A stretch of 64,000 nucleotides of DNA from positions 21,644-85,643 of the forward strand of contig JAITVV010000011.1 of NCBI GenBank assembly GCA_031285625.1, written 5' to 3'. Below, one piece after another: positions 9,110 to 26,816 of the stretch. Position 1 is the stretch's first letter, and each line of letters starts with the position of its first letter. This stretch comes from Prevotella sp. (lineage in GTDB: Bacteria; Bacteroidota; Bacteroidia; Bacteroidales; Dysgonomonadaceae). The notes below the pieces were generated by a model, which saw only the letters and a program-made list of their open reading frames with translations, was not told where the DNA came from and did no database searches. A program made the translations under genes and the position numbers.

Positions 9110-9126
9110 TGTATATTATTAAAAGA

Positions 9127-9148
9127 ACAGAGGGACGAATCCCTCTGT
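9127..9148 (-). terminator. Hairpin/terminator between susD and the amidase-like gene
   Basis: acagaggga-cgaa-tccctctgt, followed by TCTTTT on the minus strand. Confidence 0.6.
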
Positions 9149-9177
9149 AAATATTCTAAAATGAAAAATAACAAAAT

Positions 9178-10659
9178 TTATCTTGGGTTTTGAGTAATGA
9201 TACCATTATTTTTATCAATTTCATCTTGAGGTATAGGCAATATTTCATCTCGATTGGCTACAAATCCTTTAAATAATTGAGGGCCTTTACCAAAACGAAC
9301 CACATCCCAGAAACGGAATCCTTCCATTGCAAGTTCCAGACGTCTTTCTTTCAGAATATCTTCAACTAACTGATCTCCTGATGATGTAATAGCCGGTAAT
9401 CCAACCCTGTCGCGCAACAGTTTCAAATACTTCTTCGCCTCCCCTTCGTTCTTTGTTGCACCTCTGGTACAAGCCTCTGCATAATTTAAATATACCTCAG
9501 CCAAACGGATAAGCTGGATATTCAGTGGATTATTTCTAATTTCTTTAGAGCGTTCACTTGGAGGCAAATAATATTTTTGATTAAAATAACCAGTTCTGTT
9601 ACGTTCCAGTTTCGCAAAATCTTCTGCAGACTCCCATGCTTTCAGGTCATCTTCGGTCAACAAAGTTGCATCTTTTCTCTCTGTATCACCAATTGCATCA
9701 AATGCATCTGCCAGAGCCTGATATGGCTGATTGATTCCGTAACCGTAAGTTACTCCGAACGGCATCATCATCAACACATGGAAATTACCGTTATTACTTG
9801 TTGCAGCCGATTGTGAAGGCGAATCGTAATGATTTATCTCCAGAATAGATTCAGTACTATGCTCTCCAGCCAAAGTAAACTGATAACCATAATCATCTAC
9901 AAGTTTGTAATCACCGGATTCTATTACTTTCAATGCAGCCGTTTTAGCTTCATCAAACTTTTCTTCATACAGATATACTCTGGAAAGCATTGCATAAGCA
10001 GCACCTTGTGTAATACGACCTGCATAATCTGCATAGTTAACTTCAGAGCGACGTGGCAATGCTGCTGCAGCTGCATTCAGGTCAATTTCAATCTGAGCAT
10101 ATACTTCAGCTTTAGGTGTCCGGGGTTTCCCTTTATCCGCAACAGTAGGAGTTGCAGTCAATAAAGGTACATCACCAAAACATTTTACTAATTCGTGATA
10201 GAAATATCCTCTGAGAAAAAGAGCCTCGCCTAGTAATGCATTTTTCTTGTAAACAGAGAATAATGCATCATCCATCTTGTTAATGCCATCTATGGTTTGA
10301 TTAGCCTTATTTATAGCCCTGTAGCATAACATATATCTATTTAATATACGTCCATTATCAGCAGGATAATCGTAAGCTTCCATACGTGCATACCCGGAAA
10401 CGTCGGCATCGGAACCACTATAAGTAGCGTCATCGGATAATATATCACCAAATGCCCACAATGTCCATGTATACCGGTAGTCTTTCATATCTGAATAAGC
10501 TGCGGTCAAAGATTGGAAAGCTTCTTCTTCTGTTTTGAAAAAATTATCGGTAGTAAGGCTTCCTAACTTACTTTTATCTAGGGCATCATCACAGCTATTC
10601 ATCAGGAACATACTGAGTCCGATAAATAAACATAATATTTTATTTGTTTTCATTGTCAT
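9178..10659 (-). CDS. SusD/RagB family outer-membrane lipoprotein
   Basis: Lipobox MNSC; GEALFLRGYFY, IRLAEVYLNYAEA, ERRLELAMEGFRFWD, LPIPQ. Confidence 0.93.
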   Translation of the reverse strand: MTMKTNKILCLFIGLSMFLMNSCDDALDKSKLGSLTTDNFFKTEEEAFQSLTAAYSDMKDYRYTWTLWAFGDILSDDATYSGSDADVSGYARMEAYDYPADNGRILNRYMLCYRAINKANQTIDGINKMDDALFSVYKKNALLGEALFLRGYFYHELVKCFGDVPLLTATPTVADKGKPRTPKAEVYAQIEIDLNAAAAALPRRSEVNYADYAGRITQGAAYAMLSRVYLYEEKFDEAKTAALKVIESGDYKLVDDYGYQFTLAGEHSTESILEINHYDSPSQSAATSNNGNFHVLMMMPFGVTYGYGINQPYQALADAFDAIGDTERKDATLLTEDDLKAWESAEDFAKLERNRTGYFNQKYYLPPSERSKEIRNNPLNIQLIRLAEVYLNYAEACTRGATKNEGEAKKYLKLLRDRVGLPAITSSGDQLVEDILKERRLELAMEGFRFWDVVRFGKGPQLFKGFVANRDEILPIPQDEIDKNNGIITQNPR

Positions 10660-10671
10660 ATTCCTTTTTAA

Positions 10672-13600
10672 TTAAAATGTTATACTCACGCCACCTGTTA
10701 TAGTCATAGCCTGTGGATATGTACCGATATCAACACCTCTACTTAAATAGTTAGTTGAAGTAATCTGTCCAACTTCAGGGTCTGCTCCGCTATAGTCCGT
10801 AAATGTAAACAGGTTTTGTCCTGTTACATATATTCTCAACTTCTGCATATAAGCTTTCTTTGAAAAAGACACAGGGAATGTATAGCCTAATTGGATATTA
10901 CGCAAACGCAAATATGATCCATCCTCTACATAGCGGTCAGAAATACGCATATTATCATTCACATCACTACCAGCCAGACGAGGTATATTTGTATTTGTAT
11001 TGTCCGGTCTCCAATAGTTTAATACAGCCACATCTTTATTTGTCACAGAAGAAAGATCATATGTATAATAACGCATAGCATTAAATATATCATTACCATA
11101 TGTACCTCCCCATTGCATATTCAGGTCAAATCCTTTATAACCGAATCCTAGATTGATACCATAAATAAAATCAGGAATAGGATTTCCTATTACAACCTTA
11201 TCTTGGTCATTTAATGATTCATCTCCATTTGTATTTACAAAAACGACATCTCCTAGTTGTGCATTTGGTTGTAGTTTCCTTACTTCAGTAAGTTGTGCTT
11301 CAGTTTGTACCAGTCCATTTGTCTTATAACCGTAGAATGCTCCTATAGGATCTCCCACACGGGTTAATGTTGCATTACCATTTCTTAAAGCGCCCCCTGT
11401 TATTGGAGAACCACTACCAATACTTAACATTTTGTTTTTAATTGTAGAGATATTAAATCCGACATTGTAACTGAAATCTCCGATCTGATCGCGCCAATCT
11501 ATATTGAATTCAAATCCTTTATTTTCAGCACTACCAATATTCGTCATCGGACCAGTTTCAAATCCTAAGTAATTAGGGATAGGTTCGGTAATTAACATGT
11601 CCTTTGTTTTCTTATAATAATATTCACCACTAAATGTCAAGCGACCACTTAAGAAGTTTGCATCAAGTCCGATATTGGTTGACTCTGTCGTTTCCCATTT
11701 TACATTTGCATTACCCATTTTTACGGCAACCAAGCCCTGATATAATTGTTGAGCCGAACCATTACCAAATAAATATGAATATTGAATATTAGAAGATAAT
11801 AAGTTCTGATACATATAGTTATCTATATTCTGATTACCTATACGTCCCCAACCGGCTCTCAATTTTAAAGAAGACACCCATCCTGCATTCAGGTTTTTAA
11901 AGAAATCTTCATTCGAAACTTTCCATCCTAAAGCAAATGAAGGGAAGTTACCATATTGATGATCACTACCAAATCTGGAAGAACCATCGCGACGAATAGA
12001 AGCCGTAAACAGATAACGATCATCGAAATCATAGTTGATACGTCCCAGATAAGAAATCAAAGCAGACTCATATGCAGTACCTACAGCTGTTGCTGAAGAT
12101 CCATCTTGTGCTGCATCCAGATATTGTAAATCAAAATCATTATTTGGTGTATTCTTTTTCGAGCCTTCTAGTGTTTCTGTGCGTCCCCATTCTCTGGTGT
12201 AACCGACAAGAGCGTTCACACTGTGTTTTTCAGCAAATGTCCTTGTATAATTTAATGTGTTTTCCCAAACAAAATAATCAGATTTAAGATAACCGCGAGT
12301 AACCATATTCACAGGATTTTTCTGATAACTGGAAACTTCGTAGGTAGGATTAAATATATAATCATCGGTTTTTCTCATATCCACACCGAAACTTGATTTG
12401 AACTTAAAGTATTTCAAAAAATTCAGGTCAGCATATATATTTCCAACGATACTGGTTGTTTTACTTTTATTATTTGTAAAGTCAATATCAGCTACAGGGT
12501 TATTATAGTCTACATATGGAGAAAATCCATAATTTCCATCCTCATCACGTACAGGAATTACAGGTTCTAGCTTGATTGCAGAGTTTACAATACCGACAGT
12601 ATTACTTCCTTCCAGAATTTTATTCGTTCTGGATTGAGATATATTCAGATTTGTCCCTAATACCAGAGTCTTTTTAATAATCGTTTTCTCTATATTTTGT
12701 CTAAAAGAAAGACGTTGATAGTCTGTTTTTTTAATCGTACCTTCCTGATCAATATATCCTACCCCCAAATTGTATGTATATTCATCAACCATACCACCTG
12801 ATATTCCCAGATTATAACTTTGAATAGCAGCAGTACGTGTAATTTCTTTCATCCAGTCTGTAGAAGTGTTGCGATCTACCTTAGAAAGATCGATAGGAGC
12901 ACTTCCTCTTACTTTATTTATCTCTGTCTGTAGATCATACCATTGAGGTCCATCCAGTAAGTCGAGTTTATTAACAACCTTACTTGCCCCATAATATGCA
13001 TCCAATGTTACAGTTGTTTTACCCGCTTTCCCTTGTTTAGTCGTGATCAACACCACACCATTTGCACCTCTGGCTCCATAAATAGCTGTAGCCGAGGCAT
13101 CTTTTAAGATTTCCATCGACTGTATGTCTGACGTACTAAGGTAATCGATGTTACTTACAGGCATTCCATCGACTACATATAATGGGTCTGAATTATTAAC
13201 AGTACCAATACCTCTGATACGTACATTTATAGAACCACCTGGAGCTCCTGAATTTGATGTAACGATAACACCCGGAACTTGTCCCTGCAAGGCCTGTGCT
13301 ACATTGGCTACAGGTTGTCTTGATATCGCATCGGATTTTACTGAAGATATAGCTCCTGTAACATCACTCTTTTTCATCACTCCATATCCTACAACAATTA
13401 CCTCATCCATCATCTGGGCATCTTCTTCCATTGTTATACTGATATTTGTCTGATTACCTACAGCAATCGATTGAGCTTTGTATCCTATATAAGTAAACAC
13501 TAATGTAGCATCAGAAGTCGTTGCAATACTATATGCCCCATCTATATCAGTCATAGTTCCATTAGTAGTTCCCTTTATCGTTACACTAACTCCCACTAAG

Positions 13601-13770
13601 GGTTCTCCCTGTGAATCTATAACTTTCCCTTGAACTGTAACTCTTGCTTGTTGTTGTTCCACAACACCATCTGATTTCAGACTGTAAGCATATATATTTC
13701 CTACAGACGAGCAAATTAGCCCGATGGCCAACAAACAAAGAATTTTCATGTGTGTTTTTGAGTTATTCAT
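10672..13770 (-). CDS. SusC/RagA TonB-dependent transporter
   Basis: GEPLVGVSV CarboxypepD-like domain, VVGYG, LKDASATAIYGARGANGVVLITTK, C-terminal F. Confidence 0.95.
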   Translation of the reverse strand: MNNSKTHMKILCLLAIGLICSSVGNIYAYSLKSDGVVEQQQARVTVQGKVIDSQGEPLVGVSVTIKGTTNGTMTDIDGAYSIATTSDATLVFTYIGYKAQSIAVGNQTNISITMEEDAQMMDEVIVVGYGVMKKSDVTGAISSVKSDAISRQPVANVAQALQGQVPGVIVTSNSGAPGGSINVRIRGIGTVNNSDPLYVVDGMPVSNIDYLSTSDIQSMEILKDASATAIYGARGANGVVLITTKQGKAGKTTVTLDAYYGASKVVNKLDLLDGPQWYDLQTEINKVRGSAPIDLSKVDRNTSTDWMKEITRTAAIQSYNLGISGGMVDEYTYNLGVGYIDQEGTIKKTDYQRLSFRQNIEKTIIKKTLVLGTNLNISQSRTNKILEGSNTVGIVNSAIKLEPVIPVRDEDGNYGFSPYVDYNNPVADIDFTNNKSKTTSIVGNIYADLNFLKYFKFKSSFGVDMRKTDDYIFNPTYEVSSYQKNPVNMVTRGYLKSDYFVWENTLNYTRTFAEKHSVNALVGYTREWGRTETLEGSKKNTPNNDFDLQYLDAAQDGSSATAVGTAYESALISYLGRINYDFDDRYLFTASIRRDGSSRFGSDHQYGNFPSFALGWKVSNEDFFKNLNAGWVSSLKLRAGWGRIGNQNIDNYMYQNLLSSNIQYSYLFGNGSAQQLYQGLVAVKMGNANVKWETTESTNIGLDANFLSGRLTFSGEYYYKKTKDMLITEPIPNYLGFETGPMTNIGSAENKGFEFNIDWRDQIGDFSYNVGFNISTIKNKMLSIGSGSPITGGALRNGNATLTRVGDPIGAFYGYKTNGLVQTEAQLTEVRKLQPNAQLGDVVFVNTNGDESLNDQDKVVIGNPIPDFIYGINLGFGYKGFDLNMQWGGTYGNDIFNAMRYYTYDLSSVTNKDVAVLNYWRPDNTNTNIPRLAGSDVNDNMRISDRYVEDGSYLRLRNIQLGYTFPVSFSKKAYMQKLRIYVTGQNLFTFTDYSGADPEVGQITSTNYLSRGVDIGTYPQAMTITGGVSITF

Positions 13771-14507: not shown

Positions 14508-15674
14508 ATGAAAAGATTAATTAATATAACACTGCTATTCTTATGCACATTGGTTATTAATGCGCAAAATGGTCAAGTCATAACAGGAGCAGAATCTATA
14601 AATGAGTACTTCCCCTTAATAAAAGGGAAAAGAGTTGCTCTGGTTTCTAATCACACCGGTATGATAAAGGATCAGCATGTAGTAGATATATTAGTAAAAG
14701 AGAATATAAATGTAACAGCTATATTTTCTCCGGAACACGGATTCAGAGGAAATGCCGATGCAGGAGAACATGTTGCCAGTTCTGTTGACAAAAAAACAGG
14801 AATTCCAATTCGTTCACTGTATGATGGAAAAAGTAGAAAACCCAGCAAACAATCAATGGAACTTTTCGATGTTCTTTTATTTGATATTCAAGATGTAGGC
14901 CTAAGATTTTACACCTATTATATAACAATGTTCAGATTGATGGACGTGTGCGCAGAATATAACAAAGCGATGATCATACTTGACAGACCAAATCCAAACG
15001 GGCATTATGTAGATGGTCCCATAATGAATATGAAATACAAATCAGGTGTAGGATACCTGCCAATCCCCGTAGTACATGGTATGACTCTGGGAGAACTGGC
15101 TCTAATGATCAATGGAGAAGGTTGGCTGCCCGAGTCGAAAAAATGTGATATAACAATAGTGAAATGCAAAAACTATACGCATAAGACAATGTACCAACTA
15201 CCGATAGCACCTTCGCCTAATCTGCCAAATATGAAATCAATATATCTGTATCCATCCACATGCTTATTTGAAGGCACACCTGTGAGCCTGGGTAGAGGGA
15301 CATCTTATCCGTTCCAGGTATATGGACACCCTCAAATGAAAGGATATACATTTAGTTTTACACCCAAAAGCATCCCCGGAGCAAAGAATCCTCCTCTGCT
15401 AAATCAAAAATGTTTTGGAGTAGATTTAAGAAATATACCTGACGAAAATATATATACAAAAGGTATCGATCTTTCCTACATAATAGACGCTTATAAGAAT
15501 CTGAAAATGGGAAATAAATTTTTCACCTCATTCTTTGAGAATCTGATTGGCGTTGATTATGTAAGGAAAATGATTGTACAAGGTAAATCAGCAGATGAAA
15601 TTAAGGAAATGTGGAAAGATGATGTTGAAAAGTTCAAACAACAGCGTAAACCATATTTATTATATGAAGAATAA
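14508..15674 (+). CDS. namZ: Exo-beta-N-acetylmuramidase (DUF1343/GH171), paralog 1
   Basis: Signal peptide; FSPEHGFRG, DIQDVGLRFYTY, LDRPNP, HGMTLGELA, PSPNLP. Confidence 0.9.
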   Translation: MKRLINITLLFLCTLVINAQNGQVITGAESINEYFPLIKGKRVALVSNHTGMIKDQHVVDILVKENINVTAIFSPEHGFRGNADAGEHVASSVDKKTGIPIRSLYDGKSRKPSKQSMELFDVLLFDIQDVGLRFYTYYITMFRLMDVCAEYNKAMIILDRPNPNGHYVDGPIMNMKYKSGVGYLPIPVVHGMTLGELALMINGEGWLPESKKCDITIVKCKNYTHKTMYQLPIAPSPNLPNMKSIYLYPSTCLFEGTPVSLGRGTSYPFQVYGHPQMKGYTFSFTPKSIPGAKNPPLLNQKCFGVDLRNIPDENIYTKGIDLSYIIDAYKNLKMGNKFFTSFFENLIGVDYVRKMIVQGKSADEIKEMWKDDVEKFKQQRKPYLLYEE

Positions 15675-15699
15675 TCACAATCTAAATAAATAACCAAAA

Positions 15700-17157
15700 A
15701 TGAAAATCAATTGTTTTATACCTTTTCAAAGCACGGACCAAGTTAGAGCAACTATAGCTTCTTTAAAATCATCCAGTCTTGTTGGTAAAGTATTTTTACT
15801 AACAGATAACAACTGTAAAGATATGGTAGATGACTGTGAGATAATCAATATAGATTCATTACGGTCGACCGAAACAATAAAGAAAATAGCATCTAAAGCA
15901 AATACTGAATATACATTAATCTATACCAAACCGGCAGATCTTCGATTAGGCATGTTTGCTCTCGATCGCATGCTGCAAATAGCCAAAGACTCGGGTGCAG
16001 GATTAGTATATGCAGACCATTATCAGTCGGCAAACGACGAAAAGAAAAACAGCCCTGTTATTGCTTATCAGAAGGGTAGTCTGCGCGATGATTTCAATTT
16101 TGGTTCTGTACTGATATATAAATCAGAAAGCCTGAAAAAGGCTGTTTCTGAAATGGATACAGCGTATAAGTTTGCAGGATTATATGACCTGCGCTTAAAA
16201 GTATCACAAGGAGCTGAACTTGTACATATCAACGAATATTTGTATACAGAGGTGGAGAACGACACCCGTAAAAGTGGGGAGAAAATATTCGACTATGTAG
16301 ACCCGAAAAACAGGGATATGCAAATAGAAATGGAGAAAGTCTGTACCGATCATCTGAAGAAAATAGGTGCATACCTTGTTCCTGAATTCAAGAAAGTAGA
16401 GTTCAACCAATCTGAATTTGAATATGAAGCTTCCGTTATTATCCCAGTAAGAGATCGTATACGAACAGTTGCTGATGCGATAAAATCAGTGTTAAATCAA
16501 AAGACCAATTTTAAGTTCAACCTTATTGTGGTAGACAATTATTCTACTGACGGAACAACAGAAGCGATAGATAAATTCGCTTCCGACGAGCGCTTAATCC
16601 ACGTTATCCCTGAGAATAAAGAATTAGGAATCGGCGGGTGTTGGAATGCGGGTGTTCACCATCCTAAATGCGGTAAATTTGCTATACAATTAGATAGTGA
16701 TGATGTATATTCCGATGAAAATACTTTACAAAAAATAGTGGATGCATTTTACGCACAAAATTGTGCTATGGTAGTTGGGACATATATGCTTACCGACTTC
16801 GATATGAATATGATACCTCCGGGAATTATCGACCATAAAGAATGGACACCCGAAAATGGAAGAAACAATGCTTTAAGAATCAACGGACTTGGAGCTCCCC
16901 GCGCTTTCTATACTCCGGTACTGAGAGATATAAAAGTACCAAATACCAGCTATGGTGAAGATTATGCATTGGGATTGTATTTCTCCAGAGAGTATCAGAT
17001 AGGACGCATATATGATGTATTATATCTATGCCGCCGTTGGGATGATAACTCAGATGCCTCGCTGGATATCGTAAAAATGAATGCACACAATACATATAAA
17101 GACAGAATCCGTACATGGGAAGTAGAAGCTCGTATTGCTTTAAATAAGAGCAAGTGA
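15700..17157 (+). CDS. Two-domain glycosyltransferase family 2 protein
   Basis: C-terminal GT-A fold: SVIIPVRD, VDNYSTDGT, LDSDD, GEDY; N-terminal degenerate GT-A-like domain. Confidence 0.85.
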   Translation: MKINCFIPFQSTDQVRATIASLKSSSLVGKVFLLTDNNCKDMVDDCEIINIDSLRSTETIKKIASKANTEYTLIYTKPADLRLGMFALDRMLQIAKDSGAGLVYADHYQSANDEKKNSPVIAYQKGSLRDDFNFGSVLIYKSESLKKAVSEMDTAYKFAGLYDLRLKVSQGAELVHINEYLYTEVENDTRKSGEKIFDYVDPKNRDMQIEMEKVCTDHLKKIGAYLVPEFKKVEFNQSEFEYEASVIIPVRDRIRTVADAIKSVLNQKTNFKFNLIVVDNYSTDGTTEAIDKFASDERLIHVIPENKELGIGGCWNAGVHHPKCGKFAIQLDSDDVYSDENTLQKIVDAFYAQNCAMVVGTYMLTDFDMNMIPPGIIDHKEWTPENGRNNALRINGLGAPRAFYTPVLRDIKVPNTSYGEDYALGLYFSREYQIGRIYDVLYLCRRWDDNSDASLDIVKMNAHNTYKDRIRTWEVEARIALNKSK

Positions 17158-17181
17158 CAAATTGTAGTTAAACAAGTTTTG

Positions 17182-17229
17182 AAAAAGTGAGAGTCAGAAA
17201 AACTACTCATGATAAGGCTCTCACTTTTT
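17182..17229 (+). other. Intra-operon stem-loop
   Basis: aaaaagtgagag ... ctctcacttttt 12-bp inverted repeat with a long loop. Confidence 0.45.
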
Positions 17230-17248
17230 GATCTAAACAAAAAAAAGT

Positions 17249-18181
17249 ATGAACTTAACTTCAAAAATAGCGAAAGATTTACTCCGGGATCAACTTGATG
17301 AATGGCCTCTGGCTAAAACCAATTTTGATGCACTGAAAGGTGTAAAATCCAAAGAATTCCAATTCGATGATTTTATTATCAAAGTACAGTTTAATCCTGC
17401 CCGTATTCAATCATCAGCAGCTAAAGTGGATGCAAAGTCTATTCAGGAGAGAAAATGCTTTTTGTGTCCGGCTAACTTACCTAAGGAGCAAAAAGGAATT
17501 CCATTTGGTGATTATCAGCTACTCGTTAATCCGTTTCCTATATTTCCGGAGCATTTTACTATACCTGCTTATGAGCATACTGACCAATTGATCTTAAACA
17601 GATATGGCGATATGCTTGATCTGGCTAAAAGCCTGGATAAATATACTGTATTTTATAACGGACCAAAATGTGGAGCTTCGGCACCGGATCATGTGCATTT
17701 TCAAGCCGGAAGCAGAGGTTTTCTACCCTTAGAAATTGAAATAGAGAACATACCCAGAGAAATAATATACAGAACGAATGAACTCAATGTATTTATCATC
17801 CACAACTATCTGAGAAATAGTTTCTTTATAGAGACTAAAAATAGAGAGCAAGCCATACAGTTCTTTAAACAGCTATACTCTTTACTTGAAATAAAAGAAG
17901 GTGATAACGAGCCGATGATGAATATTCTGACATGGTACGAAAATGGAATATGGTACAGTTACATTATACCTCGCGAAAAACACCGTCCTGCCTGCTTCTT
18001 CGCAGAAGGAGATGATAATATACTGATCAGTCCTGCTGCTGTAGATCTGGGAGGTGTGTTCATTACTCCTTTAGAAAAGGATTTTAATAAAATCACCTCG
18101 GATGATATAAAAGGAATTCTAAAAGAAATATGCATCAGCAATCAAAAGATGCGCTCAATCATTGAAAAATTAAAACGATAA
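17249..18181 (+). CDS. DUF4922 protein, HIT/GalT-like nucleotide phosphorylase/transferase
   Basis: VQFNPARI, CFLC, LVNPFPIFPEHFTI, GASAPDHVHFQ (HxHxQ). Confidence 0.8.
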   Translation: MNLTSKIAKDLLRDQLDEWPLAKTNFDALKGVKSKEFQFDDFIIKVQFNPARIQSSAAKVDAKSIQERKCFLCPANLPKEQKGIPFGDYQLLVNPFPIFPEHFTIPAYEHTDQLILNRYGDMLDLAKSLDKYTVFYNGPKCGASAPDHVHFQAGSRGFLPLEIEIENIPREIIYRTNELNVFIIHNYLRNSFFIETKNREQAIQFFKQLYSLLEIKEGDNEPMMNILTWYENGIWYSYIIPREKHRPACFFAEGDDNILISPAAVDLGGVFITPLEKDFNKITSDDIKGILKEICISNQKMRSIIEKLKR

Positions 18182-18186
18182 TAAAC

Positions 18187-19482
18187 ATGGAACCAAAAGT
18201 AAGTGTCGGCATCTTATGGAATAACAGAATATCATTTATTCTGAGTTCTGGTTACTTATATCAGGGAAAACAAGTCTCTGACGTAAATACTGTTTCATAC
18301 ATAGATGGAAAAATATTATGGAATGGGAAAACGTATGATGAATTATATTTTGAACCAACAGCTAATAATGCCTCATTTATCATTAAGGATGTTGTTATTG
18401 GTATTAATTTTCATTGGGAACGCAAAGAAGACCAGGAATTTCAGGGAGCACTGAAATTGATAGTTGAAAACAATATGATAACAGCTATCAACATCATCAA
18501 AGTAGAAGACTACCTTACCAGTGTTATATCATCAGAAATGAGTGCGACGGCTTCGCTGGAGCTACTTAAAGCACATGCTGTAATATCGCGTAGCTGGCTT
18601 TTGGCACAGATAGAAAAGAATAAAGAAATTGTTGCAAGCAAAGAACAATACACAACATTTACCGAAACCGAAAATGAACGTATCCGCTGGTATGACAGGG
18701 AAGACCATACAAACTTTGATGTATGTGCCGATGACCATTGTCAGCGATACCAAGGAATAACACGTACTTTTGCCAATATAGAAGTGGTAAAGAAAGCCAT
18801 AAACGAAACAAGAGGACAGGTATTAAAATCGGAAAATAAAATATGCGATGCCCGTTTTTCCAAATGCTGCGGAGGAATTGCAGAAGAGTTTCAAAACTGT
18901 TGGGAAGATATCAAATTCCCCTATCTGGTAAAACTCAGGGATGACGATAAAATTCAGGATATACCCGATCTTACACAGGAAAGCGAATCTGTAAAATGGA
19001 TTCAAACCCGCCCTTCGGCTTTCTGTAATACCAAAGACAAAAAAATACTAGAACAGGTCTTAAATAATTACGATCAGGAAACGACTGATTTTTATCGTTG
19101 GCAAGTTGTTTATAGCCAAAAAGAATTATCTGAACTGGCTTATAAACGCTCAGGAATAGATTTTGGAACCATAGAAGAGTTGATTCCTGTTGAGAGGGGT
19201 ACATCAGGACGCCTTATAAAGCTAAAGATAGTAGGTTCAAAAAAAACTATGACCATTGGTAAAGAACTGGAAATACGCCGTACATTATCTACCTCGCACT
19301 TATATAGCTCTGCATTTATTGTTGACAAAAAAGATGATAAATTCATCCTTACTGGTGGAGGTTGGGGGCATGGTGTAGGACTATGTCAGATAGGTGCAGC
19401 AGTTATGGGCGAAAAAGGATATTCATACGATAAGATTTTATTGCATTACTATATTGATGCAACCATTGAGAATTTATATTAA
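18187..19482 (+). CDS. SpoIID/LytB domain protein (lytic transglycosylase family)
   Basis: VEDYLTSVISSEM, LKAHAVISRS, DVCADDHCQRYQG, GGWGHGVGLCQIGA, ILLHYY. Confidence 0.9.
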   Translation: MEPKVSVGILWNNRISFILSSGYLYQGKQVSDVNTVSYIDGKILWNGKTYDELYFEPTANNASFIIKDVVIGINFHWERKEDQEFQGALKLIVENNMITAINIIKVEDYLTSVISSEMSATASLELLKAHAVISRSWLLAQIEKNKEIVASKEQYTTFTETENERIRWYDREDHTNFDVCADDHCQRYQGITRTFANIEVVKKAINETRGQVLKSENKICDARFSKCCGGIAEEFQNCWEDIKFPYLVKLRDDDKIQDIPDLTQESESVKWIQTRPSAFCNTKDKKILEQVLNNYDQETTDFYRWQVVYSQKELSELAYKRSGIDFGTIEELIPVERGTSGRLIKLKIVGSKKTMTIGKELEIRRTLSTSHLYSSAFIVDKKDDKFILTGGGWGHGVGLCQIGAAVMGEKGYSYDKILLHYYIDATIENLY

Positions 19483-19508
19483 GAGTTGTTTAAAATATTT
19501 CCGTTTCT

Positions 19509-19612
19509 TTTGTCATGTTGAACGCAGTGAATTGAAAATCGGCAGAGCGAAGGGGAGCCAAACTCTCGTGTTAATTAGGATCGAGATTCTATGTTACACT
19601 CAGAATGACAAA
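19509..19612 (+). repeat. REP-like element, copy 2
   Basis: tttgtcatgttgaacgcagtgaattgaaaatcggcagagcgaag...gagattct...cagaatgacaaa. Confidence 0.85.
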
Positions 19613-19678
19613 GAAGATAAACTTTAAATAATGTGATATCACTTTTAAGAAAGCCAAAATACAACTAAACATAAAATC

Positions 19679-21550
19679 ATGAAAGAAAATAAGAAATCGC
19701 CGTGGGCATGGATACCGTCACTTTATCTGGCAGAAGGGTTACCATATGTTGCAGTAATGACCATTTCGGTGATCATGTACAAGCGCATGGGTATATCCAA
19801 TACCGATATAGCACTATATACCAGCTGGTTGTACCTACCTTGGGTTATTAAACCATTCTGGAGTCCCTTCGTTGATTTACTGAAAACAAAGCGCTGGTGG
19901 ATTGTAACCATGCAAATACTCATTGGCGCAGGGTTTGCCGGTATAGCATTTACAATACCCCTACCCTTCTTCTTTCAGGCTACTTTAGCATTCTTTTGGC
20001 TATTAGCTTTTAGCTCGGCAACACACGATATTGCTGCCGACGGATTCTATATGTTGGGATTAAATACGAATCAGCAAGCCAAATATGTAGGTATAAGAAG
20101 TACATTTTACCGTGTTGCTACCATTATGGGACAAGGTGTACTTATTATTCTGGCTGGTTTTTTAGAAAGTACCTCAGGGTGTGAACCTGTAAAAATAAAT
20201 ATAGATGCCTCGCCACAATATACACAGTCGACACTAATCTTACCACAAACACCAGATATTGCAGCTCAGGATGTAGAAATTCATTTTATAGTAGACAAAG
20301 ATATTGTGCAGATAGGTACACATGGTGTTGATAAAGACAGTCTGCAGTCTTTTTTAGATAAGGTAATAGCCTTAAACCAGGATAACGGATTTGTGGCAAA
20401 AGAACATACTTCCGATGCAAATATAACTGAAAAGAAAGAAAGCGTATGGACAAGGAATGTATCTAAACCCTTCGGTGACTGGATAAAAAGTAACTTTGGA
20501 GAGAAACGCTATGTTACAGAATCGGAACATACAGGGAATGTTGCTGTTGCTGCAGTAAGACTATCCAAACAGCCAGAAGATAATAAAGAAATGATACTAA
20601 ACACAACCATGAACAGAGGTGATAATAGTATAGCCCTGTTACATGGTGAACGTCTGGCTTTCAACAATACAAACTGGAACAAACCAGCTTATCTTATTTT
20701 CCAGATCGATCCGAAACTAACTACTACCAGTACAGCCGAATATAAAGGACTGTCGGGAAATATACCATTTGCATGGTCTATCACATTCTTTGTATTGGCC
20801 GGATTGTTTATATTCTTTAGTTTCTATCACAGGGTAGTACTCCCTAAACCAGATTCAGACAAGGCTCATGCACATATAACAGCGAAATCTATTTTTACTG
20901 AGTTTGGTCAAACATTCAAAAGTTTCTTTAAGAAACCACAGGCTGCCGCCGCTATATTCTTTATGCTTACCTTCCGCTTTTCAGAAGCGCAATTGCTTAA
21001 ACTCATCAATCCGTTCCTACTAGATTCGAGGGACATCGGAGGGTTAGGTTTAACGACAGGTGAAGTAGGACTTGTATATGGAACAATTGGTATTATAGGG
21101 CTTACATTAGGCGGTATTATCGGAGGTTTTGTTGCTGCCAAAGGCGGACTAAAAAGATGGGTATGGCCTATGACACTAAGCATGTTGCTGACTATCGCCA
21201 CTTTCCTCTATTTGAGCTTCACACAAACAGATAGCCTGATCATCATCAATATTTGCGTATTTATTGAACAATTCGGGTATGGATTCGGATTTACAGCATA
21301 TATGCTATACCTTATCTATTTCTCGGAAGGAACACATAAAACAGCTCATTATGCCTTCTGTACCGGATTTATGGCGTTGGGTATGATGGTTCCGGGTATG
21401 TTTGCCGGATGGCTGCAAGAACAATTAGGATATAACCACTTCTTTATTTGGGTAATGATATGCTCTATTGTTCCTATCATCGCTGTTTCGCTGTTGAAGA
21501 TCGATCCTAATTATGGAAAGGCGAAAGAAGAAACTGGAAATGAACAATAA
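19679..21550 (+). CDS. ampG: AmpG-like MFS muropeptide permease with a large inserted soluble loop
   Basis: AEGLPY, LPWVIKPFWSPFVD, SATHDIAADGFY, TAHYA motifs; about 195 extra hydrophilic residues. Confidence 0.82.
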   Translation: MKENKKSPWAWIPSLYLAEGLPYVAVMTISVIMYKRMGISNTDIALYTSWLYLPWVIKPFWSPFVDLLKTKRWWIVTMQILIGAGFAGIAFTIPLPFFFQATLAFFWLLAFSSATHDIAADGFYMLGLNTNQQAKYVGIRSTFYRVATIMGQGVLIILAGFLESTSGCEPVKINIDASPQYTQSTLILPQTPDIAAQDVEIHFIVDKDIVQIGTHGVDKDSLQSFLDKVIALNQDNGFVAKEHTSDANITEKKESVWTRNVSKPFGDWIKSNFGEKRYVTESEHTGNVAVAAVRLSKQPEDNKEMILNTTMNRGDNSIALLHGERLAFNNTNWNKPAYLIFQIDPKLTTTSTAEYKGLSGNIPFAWSITFFVLAGLFIFFSFYHRVVLPKPDSDKAHAHITAKSIFTEFGQTFKSFFKKPQAAAAIFFMLTFRFSEAQLLKLINPFLLDSRDIGGLGLTTGEVGLVYGTIGIIGLTLGGIIGGFVAAKGGLKRWVWPMTLSMLLTIATFLYLSFTQTDSLIIINICVFIEQFGYGFGFTAYMLYLIYFSEGTHKTAHYAFCTGFMALGMMVPGMFAGWLQEQLGYNHFFIWVMICSIVPIIAVSLLKIDPNYGKAKEETGNEQ

Positions 21551-21553
21551 ATA

Positions 21554-21628
21554 TTTTGTCATGCTGAGGTAACGAAGCATCTCGTCTCCTTTCAGGCAAG
21601 AAATTTCACTCCGTTCAAAATGACAAAA
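21554..21628. repeat. Short REP-like element, copy 4 (lacks the internal core)
   Basis: ttttgtcatgctgaggtaacgaagcatct...ttcactccgttcaaaatgacaaaa; same termini as the other copies. Confidence 0.7.
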
Positions 21629-21640
21629 AATAAAAAAGTT

Positions 21641-22876
21641 ATGAAAAAAACATCAATTATATTATCTGTATTCTGCTTACTCTCATTCACCTGTTTTGCA
21701 CAAAAGATAAAAATCAAAACAGGGATTGAGGTACTGAAAGAACAGAACTTTAAAGTACTGGAAGGCAAGCGTGTAGGACTTATCACCAATCCTACCGGGG
21801 TAGATAATAATATGAAATCTACAATTGACATCTTACACGAAGCCAGAAATGTGCAATTAGTAGCCCTTTTCGCTCCCGAACATGGAGTGAGAGGTGATGC
21901 CCATGCCGGAGACCATGTGGATAATGTAAAAGATCCAAACACCGGACTCCCGGTATACTCATTACATGGAAAAACTAAAATTCCCACTGCAGATATGCTC
22001 AAGGGAATTGATGCTTTGGTGTATGATATTCAGGATATAGGTTGCCGCTCATTTACCTATGTAAGCACAATGGGGCTTGGGATGCAGGCCGCTGCTGAAA
22101 ACAATATCGAATTTATTGTCCTCGACAGGCCAAACCCTCTTGGAGGATTAAAGGTAGAAGGTGGCTTGGTTGACGAAAAATTTATTTCCTTTGTAAGCCA
22201 ATTCAAAATACCTTATGTATACGGATTGACTTGTGGCGAACTGGCTCAGTTGCTTAACGGAGAAAATATGCTCAGTAAACAATGTAAGCTACAAGTAGTA
22301 AAAATGAAAAGTTGGAAACGCAAAATGACATATGAACAAACAGGACTGCAATGGATCCCATCGTCTCCGCATATCCCCCAGCCCATTTCTGCAGTGATGT
22401 ATCCTGTATCGGGCATTTTGGGTGAACTAGGTTATATGTCTATTGGTGTTGGATATACAATCCCGTTTCAGATGTTTGCTACCGAATGGATAAAAGCGGA
22501 CGAACTGGCAAACAGTCTCAACAGACTACGTTTACCCGGAATTCATTTCCGGCCTCTCTACATCAAACCATTCTACTCTGTGGGGCAAGGTAAACAACTG
22601 GAAGGGGTACAGGTACATATAATGGATTATGAAAAAGCCCGCTTATCTGAAATACAATTCTATGTTATGCAGGAAGTAGCACGGTTATACCCTGATAAAG
22701 CAGTATTTGATAATGCAAATGATAAACGCTACAGAATGTTTGATCAGGTGTGCGGCAGTGATTATGTCAGGCTTACTTTTGCAAAGAATAATAAATTCGA
22801 AGATATTAAAGATTTTTGGTACAAAGAAACCGAACCATTTAAAAAGATATCAAAGAAATACTATCTGTATAAATAA
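21641..22876 (+). CDS. namZ: Exo-beta-N-acetylmuramidase (DUF1343/GH171), paralog 2
   Basis: Signal peptide from ATG 21641; FAPEHGVRG, DIQDIGCRSFTY, LDRPNPLGG. Confidence 0.9.
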   Translation: MKKTSIILSVFCLLSFTCFAQKIKIKTGIEVLKEQNFKVLEGKRVGLITNPTGVDNNMKSTIDILHEARNVQLVALFAPEHGVRGDAHAGDHVDNVKDPNTGLPVYSLHGKTKIPTADMLKGIDALVYDIQDIGCRSFTYVSTMGLGMQAAAENNIEFIVLDRPNPLGGLKVEGGLVDEKFISFVSQFKIPYVYGLTCGELAQLLNGENMLSKQCKLQVVKMKSWKRKMTYEQTGLQWIPSSPHIPQPISAVMYPVSGILGELGYMSIGVGYTIPFQMFATEWIKADELANSLNRLRLPGIHFRPLYIKPFYSVGQGKQLEGVQVHIMDYEKARLSEIQFYVMQEVARLYPDKAVFDNANDKRYRMFDQVCGSDYVRLTFAKNNKFEDIKDFWYKETEPFKKISKKYYLYK

Positions 22877-23073: not shown

Positions 23074-24246
23074 ATGACCCAGAAACCCAATAATAATAGA
23101 TTATTATCTCTTGATATACTAAGGGGAATCACCATTGCCGGCATGATAATGGTAAACAATCCTGGATCATGGAATTATGTATATGAGCCGTTAAGGCATG
23201 CTGCATGGAACGGGCTTACCCCTACCGACTTGGTTTTTCCATTCTTCATGTTCATTATGGGGATATCTACCTTTATTTCTTTACGGAAATTCAATTTCGA
23301 GTTTAGTAAGCCTACCTTATTCAAAATAATAAAAAGAACGATTATTATATTCCTTATTGGTCTTGGTTTAGGTTGGCTATCTCTTTCATTCAGAACATTC
23401 GGTAACCTATCCGGTGAAGAATTAGGGTTCTTCGAAAGATTCTTCAAAGCCATTACCGATTTTGAACATATACGCATACTGGGTGTAATGCAACGCCTAG
23501 CCATTACATACGGAGCTACAGCCTTGATAGCTATTCTGGTTAAGCATAAATATATACCTTATATTATTGTGGTTACACTATTCGGCTATTTCTTGCTCCT
23601 GCTATTTGGAAACGGATTCGAATTTAGTGAAGATAATATTATTTCTGTTCTCGACAGAGCTATACTTGGAACGAATCATATGTACAAGGATAGTGGTCTG
23701 GCAATTGATCCGGAAGGATTATTAAGTACAATTCCGGCCATCTGTCATGTATTGATAGGATTCTGTTGCGGAGAACTGCTATTGTCAACAAAGGATAATC
23801 ACGAACGGATACAACGACTATTTATAATTGGTGCTATAATGACATTTCTTGGTTTTCTACTTAGTTATGGTTGCCCGATCAATAAAAAGATATGGTCACC
23901 GACATTTGTTATAGCTACATGCGGACTGGCAGCTACACTATTAGCTTTATTAATATGGATAATAGACATCAAGGGATATAAAAAATGGAGTGTATTCTTT
24001 GAATCATTCGGTGTGAACCCTCTGTTTATATATGTAGCAGCAGGCGTATTCTCGGTATTATTAGCCAATATTCAATTCACATATTATGGAAACTTAATAA
24101 GTATTAAAGATTTCGCATATCAAAAATGTATACATCCACTTTTCGGAAATTATTTAGGATCATTGGTGTATGCATTATTATTTGTCGGATTCAACTGGGT
24201 GATAGGTAATATATTGTATAAAAAGAAAATCTATATAAAGATATGA
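23074..24246 (+). CDS. HGSNAT/NagX-like (DUF5009/DUF1624) membrane protein, positional homolog of Tannerella MurT
   Basis: RLLSLDILRG, VNNPG, HAAWNGLTPTDLVFPFF, GVMQRLA, DPEGLLS, PINKKIWSPTF; namZ-X-kinase-murQ gene order. Confidence 0.8.
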   Translation: MTQKPNNNRLLSLDILRGITIAGMIMVNNPGSWNYVYEPLRHAAWNGLTPTDLVFPFFMFIMGISTFISLRKFNFEFSKPTLFKIIKRTIIIFLIGLGLGWLSLSFRTFGNLSGEELGFFERFFKAITDFEHIRILGVMQRLAITYGATALIAILVKHKYIPYIIVVTLFGYFLLLLFGNGFEFSEDNIISVLDRAILGTNHMYKDSGLAIDPEGLLSTIPAICHVLIGFCCGELLLSTKDNHERIQRLFIIGAIMTFLGFLLSYGCPINKKIWSPTFVIATCGLAATLLALLIWIIDIKGYKKWSVFFESFGVNPLFIYVAAGVFSVLLANIQFTYYGNLISIKDFAYQKCIHPLFGNYLGSLVYALLFVGFNWVIGNILYKKKIYIKI

Positions 24247-25103
24247 TATTACTAGCGGACGGAGGATCTACCAAAGTCGATTGGCGTTTGGTAGATGGTA
24301 GCAAAGAGATAAAACAGATTTCCACAAAAGGGTCTAATCCGTTTTTTCGTACGAGAGAAGATATTAGTGACGAAATAAAGGCTGTTATAAAACCGGCTGT
24401 GGAAAACTATGTAATCGATGCTGTATTCTTTTTTGGAGCAGGGTGTGCCACTCCTGAAAAAAGTATGGTAATAAAGAATGCAATAGCCGATAATATAAAA
24501 ACTCCCTATATAGAAGTTGACAGTGATCTGCTTGCTGCGGCAAAAGGCCTCTGTGGTACAAATGAAGGCATAGCCTGTATCCTGGGTACAGGATCAAACT
24601 CGTGCTTCTATGACGGAATAGCCATAAAAGAAAATATCTCACCTTTGGGTTATATACTTGGGGATGAGGGAAGCGGTGCTGTCCTGGGCAGACTGTTTAT
24701 AGGAGCATGTTTGAAAAACCAACTAACAAAAGGACTTAAAGAGAAGTTCCTCAAGGAGTTTGATCTTACACCGGCTACTATTCTGGATACTGTATATAAA
24801 CAACCAATGGCTAACCGCTTTCTGGCAAGTCTCTCTCCTTTCCTGATAGAGAACATACAGGACGAAAGCGTCTATAATCTTGTCTATAATGCATTTAAAG
24901 ATTTCTTTGTAAAGAACGTAATGCAATATGACTATAAAAATAATGATGTACATTTTACAGGATCTGTGGCATACCACTACAAAGACATATTACATAAAGT
25001 AGGTTCTGACATCGGCATCAAAATAGGTACTATTGCACAATCGCCAATGGAAGGCCTTATCAGATACTATGCAGGAGAATGTCAAACAATATATAACAGA
25101 TAA
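24243..25103 (+). CDS. murK: BadF-type N-acetylmuramic acid kinase, paralog 2
   Basis: DGGSTK, GTGSNS, LGDEGSG; start overlaps the upstream stop; directly before murQ. Confidence 0.75.
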   Translation: MILLADGGSTKVDWRLVDGSKEIKQISTKGSNPFFRTREDISDEIKAVIKPAVENYVIDAVFFFGAGCATPEKSMVIKNAIADNIKTPYIEVDSDLLAAAKGLCGTNEGIACILGTGSNSCFYDGIAIKENISPLGYILGDEGSGAVLGRLFIGACLKNQLTKGLKEKFLKEFDLTPATILDTVYKQPMANRFLASLSPFLIENIQDESVYNLVYNAFKDFFVKNVMQYDYKNNDVHFTGSVAYHYKDILHKVGSDIGIKIGTIAQSPMEGLIRYYAGECQTIYNR

Positions 25104-25107
25104 TAAA

Positions 25108-25936: not shown

Positions 25937-25968
25937 AAAAGGAATAGTCAGATATGGTTATTCCTTTT
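25937..25968. terminator. Bidirectional terminator
   Basis: aaaaggaatagtca-gata-tggttattcctttt. Confidence 0.7.
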
Positions 25969-26621: not shown

Positions 26622-26816
26622 AAAGATTAAACTCTGCGAAATTAATATTTTACAATAACATAATATCGAATGAATGGCAAAATTCTTATATATATTTACA
26701 GTATCAGAACAGATTATCTCATTTGATAATGTATCAGGAACACACATTTTTATTATCTTTACCCTCTGTATTTTATTTATTAAACCTAAATCAATATGAT
26801 GTTTACAGTAAAAAAA

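Follow-up and report, generated by a model that had tools for sequence, protein, structure and literature searches.

How do Bacteroidales such as Tannerella forsythia and gut Bacteroides handle the peptidoglycan-derived disaccharides of N-acetylglucosamine (GlcNAc) and N-acetylmuramic acid (MurNAc) that are imported by AmpG? This step is an acknowledged gap, for which a locus in Prevotella sp. (assembly GCA_031285625.1, contig JAITVV010000011.1) offers an obvious candidate. In the 64,000-nucleotide (nt) stretch analyzed here (contig positions 21,644 to 85,643, referred to as the window, whose coordinates are used throughout), three adjacent genes at 15700-19482 encode a GT2 glycosyltransferase, a DUF4922 protein and a SpoIID-like protein, together called the trio, which combine intact active sites, a shared distribution and repeated fusion with the lack of an assigned reaction. 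It is quite probable that the trio constitutes a cytoplasmic enzyme module processing imported peptidoglycan glycan fragments. The best explanation as a whole, to which we give somewhat less than an even chance, is a salvage-locus module that dismantles imported GlcNAc-(anh)MurNAc, in which anhMurNAc denotes 1,6-anhydro-MurNAc, by a phosphorolytic pair and a SpoIID-like step. The three open reading frames (ORFs) lie where the preliminary description of this DNA had placed them, with family matches well above chance level:

15700..17157, plus strand: tandem GT-A glycosyltransferase GT2, 485 amino acids (aa) (Pfam PF00535, AlphaFold model)
17249..18181, plus strand: DUF4922 protein, 310 aa (Pfam PF16269, AlphaFold model)
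18187..19482, plus strand: SpoIID/LytB-domain protein without signal, 431 aa, starting 5 nt past the DUF4922 stop (Pfam PF08486, TIGR02669)

The first matter to be settled is whether these genes act together. Patterns taken from the DUF4922 protein were searched in 185,579 species genomes and yielded 71 related loci; for the synteny counts, a locus was used only where the DNA on the side in question was long enough. In 53 of 58 loci, the GT2 gene was identified at most 2 kb upstream of the DUF4922 gene and in the same orientation; the SpoIID-like gene was identified at most 1.5 kb downstream in 40 of 63 loci, with 6 more carrying it elsewhere in the locus. The preliminary description had placed the trio just upstream of ampG within a salvage locus and had named a general lack of linkage of homologues to ampG and namZ as what would speak against its interpretation; the trio indeed has namZ and ampG on either side, dozens of other genomes show the same arrangement, and AmpG and NamZ are present in 36 of 57 and 28 of 56 loci, respectively, which does not bear out such a lack of linkage. 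The genes are also repeatedly joined. DUF4922 and SpoIID form a single ORF of ~764 aa in 10 loci, all three parts form one 1297-aa ORF in L071, and Pfam agrees with the fusion calls for L022 and L071. Of the 19 long proteins scanned from the 150 best cluster representatives, seven join DUF4922 to SpoIID and five join GT2 to DUF4922. In a quick maximum-likelihood tree of 105 DUF4922 domains, whose deep branches are weak, the fused forms are scattered, and the well-supported branches imply no fewer than three changes per type of fusion; one clade probably holds fragments of triple fusions.

The distribution across genomes points in the same direction. In 201 sampled genomes, strong DUF4922 matches and SpoIID-like orthologues occur in exactly the same 34, with three further weak DUF4922 matches of another kind, and a GT2 orthologue is present in 36, namely those 34 plus G074 and G118. 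Since the trio genes are often on different contigs, their co-occurrence is not just an effect of adjacency. Five Ignavibacteria-type genomes without SpoIID beside the GT2-DUF4922 pair all encode a full-length orthologue (>700 bits) elsewhere, and all five have AmpG-like genes that score below the family cut-off. The trio is under strong purifying selection with intact catalytic motifs. Fusions, synteny and the identical distribution across genomes thus indicate that the trio is functionally linked and cytoplasmic. The module-positive genomes of the sample are all classed as "same phylum" relative to the genome studied here (G000), and those of the same genus, order or class are devoid of DUF4922; despite this absence in close kin of G000, the window proteins are nearest to Dysgonomonas and the GC content of the contig is homogeneous, a pattern that may stem from the labels of the sample, from loss in close relatives or from transfer.

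The cytoplasmic location was assessed by the maximal hydrophobicity of any 10 residues at the N terminus, with envelope and cytoplasmic proteins of the same locus serving as controls. The envelope proteins (SusC, SusD, a Golvesin-domain protein, both NamZ proteins and a 3-keto-disaccharide-hydrolase protein) score 2.4-3.3, and the cytoplasmic MurK and MurQ score 1.0 and 0.13, respectively. With values of 1.68 for GT2, 0.49 for DUF4922 and 1.53 for the SpoIID-like protein, all three members of the trio lack export signals, resembling MurK and MurQ and falling below the envelope controls, as the preliminary description had held from the absence of obvious signal peptides; no transmembrane segment was seen in any of them.

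The assignment of the SpoIID-like protein to its family, already proposed from the sequence, holds at the level of both databases (Pfam PF08486, E = 7.4e-24; NCBIfam TIGR02669 SpoIID/LytB, 175.7 bits versus a cut-off of 83.3), and it falls below the cut-off of the equivalog model for SpoIID proper (TIGR02870 spore_II_D, 122.3 versus 234.75 bits). Residues E117 (nt 18535-18537, within SSEMS), C180, H184, C185 and C228 and a GHGVG motif are invariant in 28 homologues, and E117 aligns with the ASEM glutamate of PDB 4RWR, which we take to be the catalytic residue conserved in SpoIID/LytB proteins. SpoIID enzymes act on peptide-free glycan. The SpoIID proteins of Bacillus and Clostridioides (PDB 4RWR, 5I1T, 5TXU) share the SpoIID/LytB domain, the glutamate in its SEM context and the GHGVG motif, whereas the protein studied here has no anchor or signal, carries an additional family-specific N-terminal region of ~95 residues with an invariant FHWE motif, and is fused to cytoplasmic enzymes in other genomes. 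No extracytoplasmic signal peptide or membrane anchor was found in it by hydrophobicity or by inspection of the N termini of homologues. Of 35 stand-alone SpoIID-like ORFs in the related loci, 33 do not exceed 1.6 in their maximal hydrophobicity over 12 residues, the exceptions being L008 (2.17, where the maximum is the conserved strand itself) and L057 (1.73, in an upstream-extended ORF), and nearly all of them open with the conserved motif (E)P.(I/V).VGI. In a Mediterranea metagenome-assembled genome (L009:10955-12754), the SpoIID-like ORF of 599 aa is split by a DUF559/endonuclease-like domain at residues 203-306.

It has nonetheless to be considered that the SpoIID-like protein is a periplasmic lytic transglycosylase (TfLytB) with an unrecognized export route, making GlcNAc-anhMurNAc for AmpG, with GT2 and DUF4922 doing something separate. 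The complete SpoIID/LytB domain with its invariant glutamate and cysteine/histidine cluster would suit such a role, T. forsythia extracts make GlcNAc-anhMurNAc from peptidoglycan according to the available text of PMC7670621, and the T. forsythia counterpart is labeled a putative lytic transglycosylase or an "amidase enhancer precursor" in the accessible parts of bioRxiv 10.1101/2021.12.02.470905 and PMC5388701, respectively. However, neither this protein nor its homologues have a signal peptide, it is repeatedly fused behind DUF4922 (in L071 behind GT2-DUF4922) in single ORFs without a transmembrane segment, and it shares its genomic distribution with DUF4922. A periplasmic role therefore appears highly unlikely.

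What kind of enzyme is the DUF4922 protein? It matches Pfam PF16269 over residues 11-154 (E = 1e-64). The HVHFQ motif noted earlier is found at residues 148-152 (nt 17690-17704), with H148, H150 and Q152 invariant in 75 diverse homologues, in which C70 and C73 of a CxxC motif and H110 are at least 90% conserved. The AlphaFold model (mean predicted local distance difference test score, pLDDT, 96.8) has a two-lobed HIT fold along the whole chain and superposes over model residues 1-310 on the yeast Ap4A phosphorylase Apa2 (VIA Z 22.6, root-mean-square deviation (rmsd) 3.4, 263 residues aligned; Foldseek E = 5e-10). Lower scores of Z 8-10 were obtained for ADP-glucose phosphorylase and for GalT and related uridylyltransferases, GalT with an rmsd of 4.5-5. 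Of these, sequence and profile searches retrieve Apa2 only, with DHVHFQ aligned on DHKHLQ, and GalT was not retrieved by either at E values up to 1. The modeled fold thus agrees with the earlier placement of this HxHxQ protein among the nucleotidyl-transferring HIT enzymes, and by sequence and model it belongs with the phosphorylase-like members of the HIT superfamily (Apa2 and GDP-sugar phosphorylases), its own activity being putative.

In the literature accessible to us, the name DUF4922 is tied to eukaryotic GDP-L-galactose or GDP-glucose phosphorylases, and these enzymes are described there as carrying the same Pfam domain. Apa2 and the GDP-L-galactose and GDP-D-glucose phosphorylases (VTC2/GGP, GDPGP1) appear to have the two-lobed HIT fold, the aligned HxHxQ and the Pfam domain in common with the protein studied here. 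The bacterial protein differs from Apa2, VTC2 and GDPGP1 in being tied to a GT2 and a SpoIID-like protein, and its identity to Apa2 is only 17-19%, with its conserved CxxC missing from the aligned Apa2. A shorter DUF4922 paralogue (280-297 aa, 40-42% identity) was identified in L023, L024, L035 and L067 without GT2, SpoIID or AmpG, adjoining a gene for a monofunctional transglycosylase and one for a TPR protein, and these proteins were treated as a separate subfamily.

Enzymes of the Apa2/GDP-sugar phosphorylase class catalyze NDP-X + phosphate <-> NDP + X-phosphate (NDP, nucleoside diphosphate) via a nucleotidyl-histidine. The substrates of Ap4A, GDP-L-galactose and GDP-glucose phosphorylases are thus NDP-X and phosphate and not a nucleoside triphosphate (NTP) and a sugar-1-phosphate. 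The preliminary description had proposed that the DUF4922 protein activates MurNAc-1-phosphate or GlcNAc-1-phosphate with an NTP, as a possible non-homologous counterpart of AmgK/MurU. None of the trio matches APH-type kinases or NTP_transferase in Pfam or NCBIfam, which fits the wording "non-homologous" and would leave a likeness of function only; the NTP-using activation itself is not favored, given that the nearest fold is Apa2 and that MurB is present in the genome. The presence of MurB means that the organism can make MurNAc and is not an auxotroph, so that an anabolic bypass is not needed. As for AmgK itself, the genome contains three APH-family ORFs, of which L080:1186-2274 and L081:1171-2271 match no NCBIfam model and L079 has only sub-cut-off matches to aminoglycoside kinases, and no nucleotidyltransferase that might represent MurU was found in the 1.5-kb flanks of these ORFs. 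Phosphorolysis or transfer by the GT2, the last alternative of the preliminary description, fits the evidence better than an AmgK/MurU-like activation. Its overall interpretation is therefore retained with regard to the cytoplasmic location, the linkage and the salvage context, and the activation step is not.

A broader form of the anabolic idea is that DUF4922 makes UDP-MurNAc or UDP-GlcNAc from a sugar-1-phosphate, by a GalT-like exchange between UDP-GlcNAc and MurNAc-1-phosphate or by reverse phosphorolysis, and so skips the cost of MurA/MurB or AmgK/MurU. The invariant nucleotidyl-transfer motif and the GalT-class fold similarity are compatible with it. The same holds for the conserved cysteine pair and H110, cysteines that Apa2 lacks in the alignment and that, together with H110, presumably recall the structural zinc site of GalT. 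An NTP_transferase gene adjoins the SpoIID-like gene in L068, and the genes are kept in the MurNAc auxotroph T. forsythia. Nevertheless, the structure is far nearer to Apa2-type phosphorylases than to GalT, which the sequence profile misses, the genome studied here is no auxotroph, and the GT2 and SpoIID-like enzymes would be left without a role despite having the same distribution as DUF4922. We regard this shortcut as unlikely.

The partner enzyme, GT2, was described earlier as having two domains with an intact DxD motif, and the structural data bear this out. Residues 1-482 of its AlphaFold model (pLDDT 90.5) can be aligned with the two GT-A domains of the chondroitin polymerase K4CP (VIA Z 25.3, 403 residues aligned; Foldseek E = 4e-20), and PmHS2 and LARGE1 are also among the structural matches. 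The C-terminal half (~240-485) is a canonical GT2 domain, with Pfam PF00535 at residues 245-373 (E = 1.9e-22, 80.4 bits versus a cut-off of 23.3), and matches inverting GT-A enzymes, including SpsA, TarP, TarS and WrtF, at Z 19-23. The DxD motif, D332-S-D334 (nt 16693-16701) followed by D335 within QLDSDD, is invariant in 37 homologues, D335 included. Both halves are highly conserved in this set. The N-terminal half (1 to ~195) is GT-A-like with a strongly conserved YQxGSLRDDFNFG loop; no conserved pair of DxD columns was found in it among the 37 homologues, where only D106 is at least 90% conserved, and in the ESM Atlas it retrieves unnamed or GT2 clusters only. An invariant C444-R-R-W447 was considered as a QxxRW-like motif of processive synthases and rejected, as neither the spacing nor the strand predicted in place of an expected helix supports it.

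K4CP thus resembles GT2 in having two successive GT-A domains in one soluble chain, as do the likewise tandem PmHS2 and LARGE1, but the identity is ~16%, the rmsd of ~21 A across both domains means that the domain orientation differs, the N-terminal domain of GT2 has no conserved DxD and there is no sign of polymerizing activity. These comparisons bear on another explanation, in which the tandem GT-A enzyme builds an alternating GlcNAc/MurNAc-type oligosaccharide or a glycoconjugate in the cytoplasm from NDP-sugars in the manner of K4CP, heparosan or LARGE polymerases, DUF4922 regulates the supply of NDP-sugars, the SpoIID-like protein trims the product, and the label "glycosylation-related operon" is right. 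That label was applied to the T. forsythia operon by an earlier study quoted in the accessible text of PMC5388701. The fold of the whole protein is that of two-domain polymerases of alternating copolymers, the GT4 gene that separates GT2 from the SpoIID-like gene in L044 and L060 would also be consistent with synthesis, and the product of such a polymerase would be a peptide-free glycan of the type that SpoIID uses. However, two active transferase sites are doubtful in view of the N-terminal half, the constant partners of the trio are AmpG, NamZ, MurK, MurQ, NagB/PIG-L and fragment-trimming enzymes, and a Pfam search of the cluster detected neither a flippase nor a polyprenyl-phosphate transferase, nor any gene for export. 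A synthetic module is accordingly considered very unlikely.

The neighborhood of the trio indicates what it might act on. On the plus strand, the order between 14508 and 25932 is namZ, GT2, DUF4922, SpoIID-like, ampG, namZ, a gene in the murT position, a gene in the murK position and murQ, preceded by a divergent set:

6086..13770, minus strand: SusC, SusD and a 1007-aa Golvesin_C-domain protein, divergent set (Pfam)
14508..15674, plus strand: NamZ-family exo-beta-N-acetylmuramidase (GH171), copy a, first plus-strand gene of the cluster (Pfam NamZ_N, E = 2.2e-77; NamZ_C, E = 6.1e-33)
19483..19678, no strand: spacer between the SpoIID-like gene and ampG with a copy of a dispersed palindromic repeat, ~110-130 bp (genome-wide blastn)
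19679..21550, plus strand: AmpG-family muropeptide permease of the major facilitator superfamily (MFS), 623 aa, with a ~193-aa insertion in the central loop (TIGR00901)
21620..22876, plus strand: NamZ-family exo-muramidase, copy b, with a signal-like N terminus (Pfam, hydrophobicity)
23074..24246, plus strand: membrane protein in the MurT position, NagX-like, sub-cut-off (NCBIfam NF046061, E = 7.2e-39, 133.9 bits versus 480)
24243..25103, plus strand: BadF/BcrAD-type sugar kinase in the MurK position (Pfam PF01869, E = 1.1e-9; gene order as for T. forsythia murK)
25033..25932, plus strand: MurQ, MurNAc-6-phosphate etherase (NCBIfam NF003915, 372 bits versus 168, ORF residues 30-294)

NamZ copy a has a signal-like hydrophobic core at its N terminus (hydrophobicity 2.78), the membrane protein at 23074-24246 occupies the same position as T. 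forsythia MurT, and the AmpG match is significant (E = 2.3e-46), yet at 158 bits it stays under the curated cut-off of 350. The true start of murQ is probably the ATG near 25108, right behind the murK stop.

The trio belongs to a peptidoglycan-fragment salvage locus, as it does in T. forsythia. There, in the accessible parts of PMC5388701, the genes Tanf_08345-08385 were reported as co-transcribed by reverse transcription PCR and labeled xanthan lyase, gtf, gtf, lytB ("amidase enhancer precursor"), ampG and ybbC, and bioRxiv 10.1101/2021.12.02.470905, as far as its text is available, describes the function of the two Gtf genes as unknown and Tanf_08360 as a putative lytic transglycosylase. The order gtf, gtf, lytB, ampG, namZ, murT, murK, murQ on one strand is the same in both organisms, and by position Tanf_08355, the second gtf, should be the DUF4922 gene. 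The two loci differ in that a second namZ stands first here in place of the xanthan lyase, with a Golvesin-domain gene in the divergent SusC/D set, and in that T. forsythia is a MurNAc auxotroph, unlike the MurB-containing genome studied here. The genes of the trio are thus already in the literature as Tanf_08350/08355/08360, known as genes only and without a function, and no later characterization of these or their relatives was found in a literature search that left subscription papers outside. New evidence comes here from the synteny, the fusions, the folds and the search for AnmK and NagZ, as well as from the exact match in distribution, the weakening of the idea that the module replaces AnmK, the genomes that retain GT2 only and the insertion in AmpG. 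The parts of PMC7670621 that could be consulted state that AmpG of T. forsythia is required for growth on peptidoglycan-derived GlcNAc-anhMurNAc/GlcNAc-MurNAc sources, and that no AnmK orthologue is predicted although GlcNAc-anhMurNAc is used, the fate of anhMurNAc being one that "remains to be explored".

The variable members of the related loci are informative as well. An AmiA-like MurNAc-L-alanine amidase is fused to GT2 in L049, a GNAT acetyltransferase lies between DUF4922 and SpoIID in L042 and is part of a fusion in P0211, and an SGNH/GDSL esterase occupies the same place in L064. In Dysgonomonas, a sodium:solute symporter gene precedes GT2 (L001) or shares one ORF with it (L004). A relative of the 1007-aa protein was identified in 16 of the 71 loci, immediately 5' of GT2 in 11 of them, and this protein is probably an envelope enzyme feeding the pathway; it carries a signal, and Golvesin_C is its sole Pfam match. 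Two genomes have lost part of the trio. G118 (2.3 Mb) keeps the GT2 orthologue (61% identity) and has lost those of DUF4922 and the SpoIID-like protein, its GT2 gene (L092) adjoining a NagB/PIG-L fusion and a divergent murK-murQ-susC. G074 (2.0 Mb, L093) keeps GT2 (57% identity) and has lost only DUF4922, with a shorter SpoIID-like gene of 348 aa directly behind GT2 and murK nearby. The accessory genes are trimmers of peptidoglycan fragments, and together with the reduced genomes they connect the module with the sugars of imported wall fragments and argue against protein or surface glycosylation.

The same neighbors speak to the idea that the module serves signaling or quality control, by sensing, making or destroying a muropeptide-derived signal or by clearing mis-made NDP-sugars, and not bulk flux. 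In P0226, DUF4922 is joined to an AraC-type DNA-binding domain, and GDPGP1-type enzymes have been given housekeeping roles, the animal GDP-glucose phosphorylase having been proposed, in the literature accessible to us, to clear mis-made NDP-sugars. The AraC fusion, however, is just one of the 19 long representatives and may be an artefact of gene calling, and the tight operon linkage with transport, catabolic and trimming genes argues for flux, which makes such a role extremely unlikely.

How, then, might imported fragments be dismantled? In the module favored here, SusC/D, the Golvesin-domain protein and the two NamZ exo-muramidases would release peptide-free GlcNAc-MurNAc-type fragments, which AmpG would import. 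The canonical half of GT2 would catalyze a reverse transfer on the beta-1,4 bond (GlcNAc-MurNAc + NDP -> NDP-GlcNAc + MurNAc), and DUF4922, via a covalent nucleotidyl-His150, would convert NDP-sugar and phosphate to sugar-1-phosphate with regeneration of the NDP. Inverting GT-A enzymes form or cleave beta-glycosidic bonds, an NDP-alpha-sugar being the reaction partner on the opposite side of the equation. The pair would thereby amount to a reversible glycoside phosphorylase that needs NDP in catalytic amounts only (GlcNAc-beta-1,4-MurNAc + phosphate -> GlcNAc-1-phosphate + MurNAc) and would save the ATP and acetyl-CoA otherwise spent on remaking GlcNAc-1-phosphate. As GlcNAc-1-phosphate goes directly to UDP-GlcNAc (GlmU), this would explain why an anaerobe keeps the pair; it would also explain GT2-DUF4922 as the invariant core at a site otherwise expected to hold a cytoplasmic N-acetylglucosaminidase. 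The SpoIID-like enzyme would handle MurNAc-GlcNAc bonds of imported oligomers or 1,6-anhydro-MurNAc ends, possibly by running the energy-neutral chemistry of the anhydro bond backwards and so opening GlcNAc-anhMurNAc, and the freed MurNAc would pass to MurK/MurQ. The SGNH esterase beside the SpoIID-like gene, seen in a single locus, would fit a need for a free C6 hydroxyl on MurNAc.

Two known systems help to place this proposal. Enterobacterial recycling (AmpG, NagZ, AmpD, AnmK, MurQ) has an AmpG-type importer and the MurQ end point in common with this locus, and has to solve the same task, namely to separate GlcNAc from (anh)MurNAc and to open the anhydro ring; it differs in that GT2, HIT-fold and SpoIID-like enzymes stand here in the place of AnmK and NagZ, without being a clean replacement. 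AnmK (PF03702) was not found in the assembly, which is 94% complete, and as for NagZ there is no GH3 protein above the cut-off, the best candidate reaching 155.7 of 207 bits and having a signal peptide. The GH94 chitobiose phosphorylase converts a beta-linked disaccharide and phosphate to a sugar-1-phosphate and a free sugar. GH94-type glycoside phosphorylases would thus carry out the same kind of net reaction as that proposed, a likeness of function only with no homology, and the proposed reaction, unlike theirs, would need two enzymes, a Leloir-type transferase and an NDP-sugar phosphorylase, between which the NDP is recycled as a carrier.

We put forward the specific pairing of GT2 and DUF4922 as a phosphorolytic mechanism only tentatively and hold it to be doubtful, as several observations weigh against it or against the wider proposal. 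Whether the pathway runs toward breakdown or synthesis, and with which nucleotide and sugar, is inferred, and the enzymatic activities of the trio are putative. For a GT2 acting on a plain beta-glycoside, reverse transfer is thermodynamically unfavorable, and we know of no natural phosphorolytic pair of a glycosyltransferase and a HIT protein. The scheme leaves the strong conservation of the GT-A-like N-terminal half of GT2 unexplained. The weakest link is the role of the SpoIID-like protein, as a GlcNAc-MurNAc disaccharide has no MurNAc-GlcNAc bond for a lytic transglycosylase. The lack of a NagZ above the cut-off is qualified by the fact that cytoplasmic hexosaminidase families such as GH20 and GH84 were not searched. 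The GT2-DUF4922 pairs of Ignavibacteria type are not beside ampG and sometimes adjoin a GT4 glycosyltransferase gene, which could point to synthesis; some Ignavibacteria loci have a gene for a TonB-dependent receptor or an RlpA-like protein nearby and no ampG. The set of 71 loci is biased toward close relatives, as the patterns were taken from this DUF4922 protein, and the 201 genomes are kin and not independent samples, which limits the weight of the counts. The module was also considered as a strict replacement of AnmK, and this was rejected: AnmK was identified in 136 of the 201 genomes, including 15 of the 33 other module-positive genomes versus 121 of the 167 module-negative ones, which is a mild depletion and not exclusion.

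In its widest form, the proposal would be that imported peptidoglycan sugars are taken apart in many Bacteroidota and Ignavibacteriota, and in a few other groups, without NagZ or the ATP-dependent AnmK by a two-enzyme phosphorylase of GT2 and an Apa2-like protein, that a cytoplasmic SpoIID-type lytic transglycosylase uses or opens the energy-rich 1,6-anhydro bond, that the products are sugar-1-phosphates or NDP-sugars re-entering wall synthesis directly, and that in some lineages the enzymes dock on the inserted cytoplasmic domain of AmpG; we judge this combination rather unlikely. If the proposed chemistry holds, it would represent a new route of cell-wall recycling; bacterial DUF4922 proteins would gain their first function, a SpoIID-type enzyme would for the first time have a role in the cytoplasm, and a transferase and a phosphorylase would form a natural pair acting as a phosphorylase. 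The natural fusion proteins make this chemistry testable with one purified protein.

The AmpG insertion, of ~193 aa (nt 20180-20758), lies in the central loop and belongs to no known family. The central loop of MFS transporters is cytoplasmic, and the cytoplasmic enzymes might use the insertion as a docking domain. It is present in 12 of the 201 sampled genomes, all of them among the 34 module-positive (12 of 34 versus 0 of 167), with 10 of the 12 coming from one family. Module-linked AmpG ORFs include 22 long and 14 short forms, so that the insertion is not universal; in the contig of a related strain, 20343-20618 within it is swapped for 262 other letters. An ESM Atlas search with the insertion gave scores of at most 0.83 and was uninformative.

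Immediately upstream of ampG, the repeat in the spacer at 19483-19678 measures ~110-130 bp, has inverted ends (TTTGTCAT / ATGACAAAG) and recurs in the window at ~2398-2502 and 28135-28264. Genome-wide blastn returned 46 hit lines, comprising ~7 long copies (104-130 bp, 84-92% identity) and many fragments. Sequencing depth spikes at 19483-19678, and the contig of the related strain skips 19482-19664, the element being missing there.

With regard to expression, a sigma-70 promoter scan of the window gave 54 matches versus 57.7 expected, and TAnnTTTG, which we take to be the Bacteroidetes-type promoter motif, occurs 83 times versus 84 expected, with copies at 14410 and 14470 preceding namZ; with counts this near to expectation, neither scan is informative. 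No convincing internal terminators were detected in the cluster (5 seen versus 6.8 expected). In an RNA-labeled library of the related strain (~95% identical), contigs span the whole trio and bridge namZ/GT2 (14742-17190) and DUF4922/SpoIID (17191-19611); as a single transcript is not provable and the templates may have been DNA, they are a weak hint of expression. The GC content of the window is ~36%, and its proteins are closest to those of Dysgonomonas mossii, with 73-93% identity.

Two further genes follow the cluster. A HAD-IA phosphatase of the phosphoglycolate-phosphatase/MupP family (25968-26747, minus strand) is convergent with murQ; every match is sub-cut-off (best 114 versus 225 bits, MupP model 46.6 versus 359), and a role as a MurNAc-6-phosphate phosphatase is possible but unsupported. 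A signal-bearing protein with two 3-keto-disaccharide-hydrolase domains is encoded at 26796-28085, and its gene is kept directly 3' of murQ or ampG in L001, L002 and L005 (84-89% identity).

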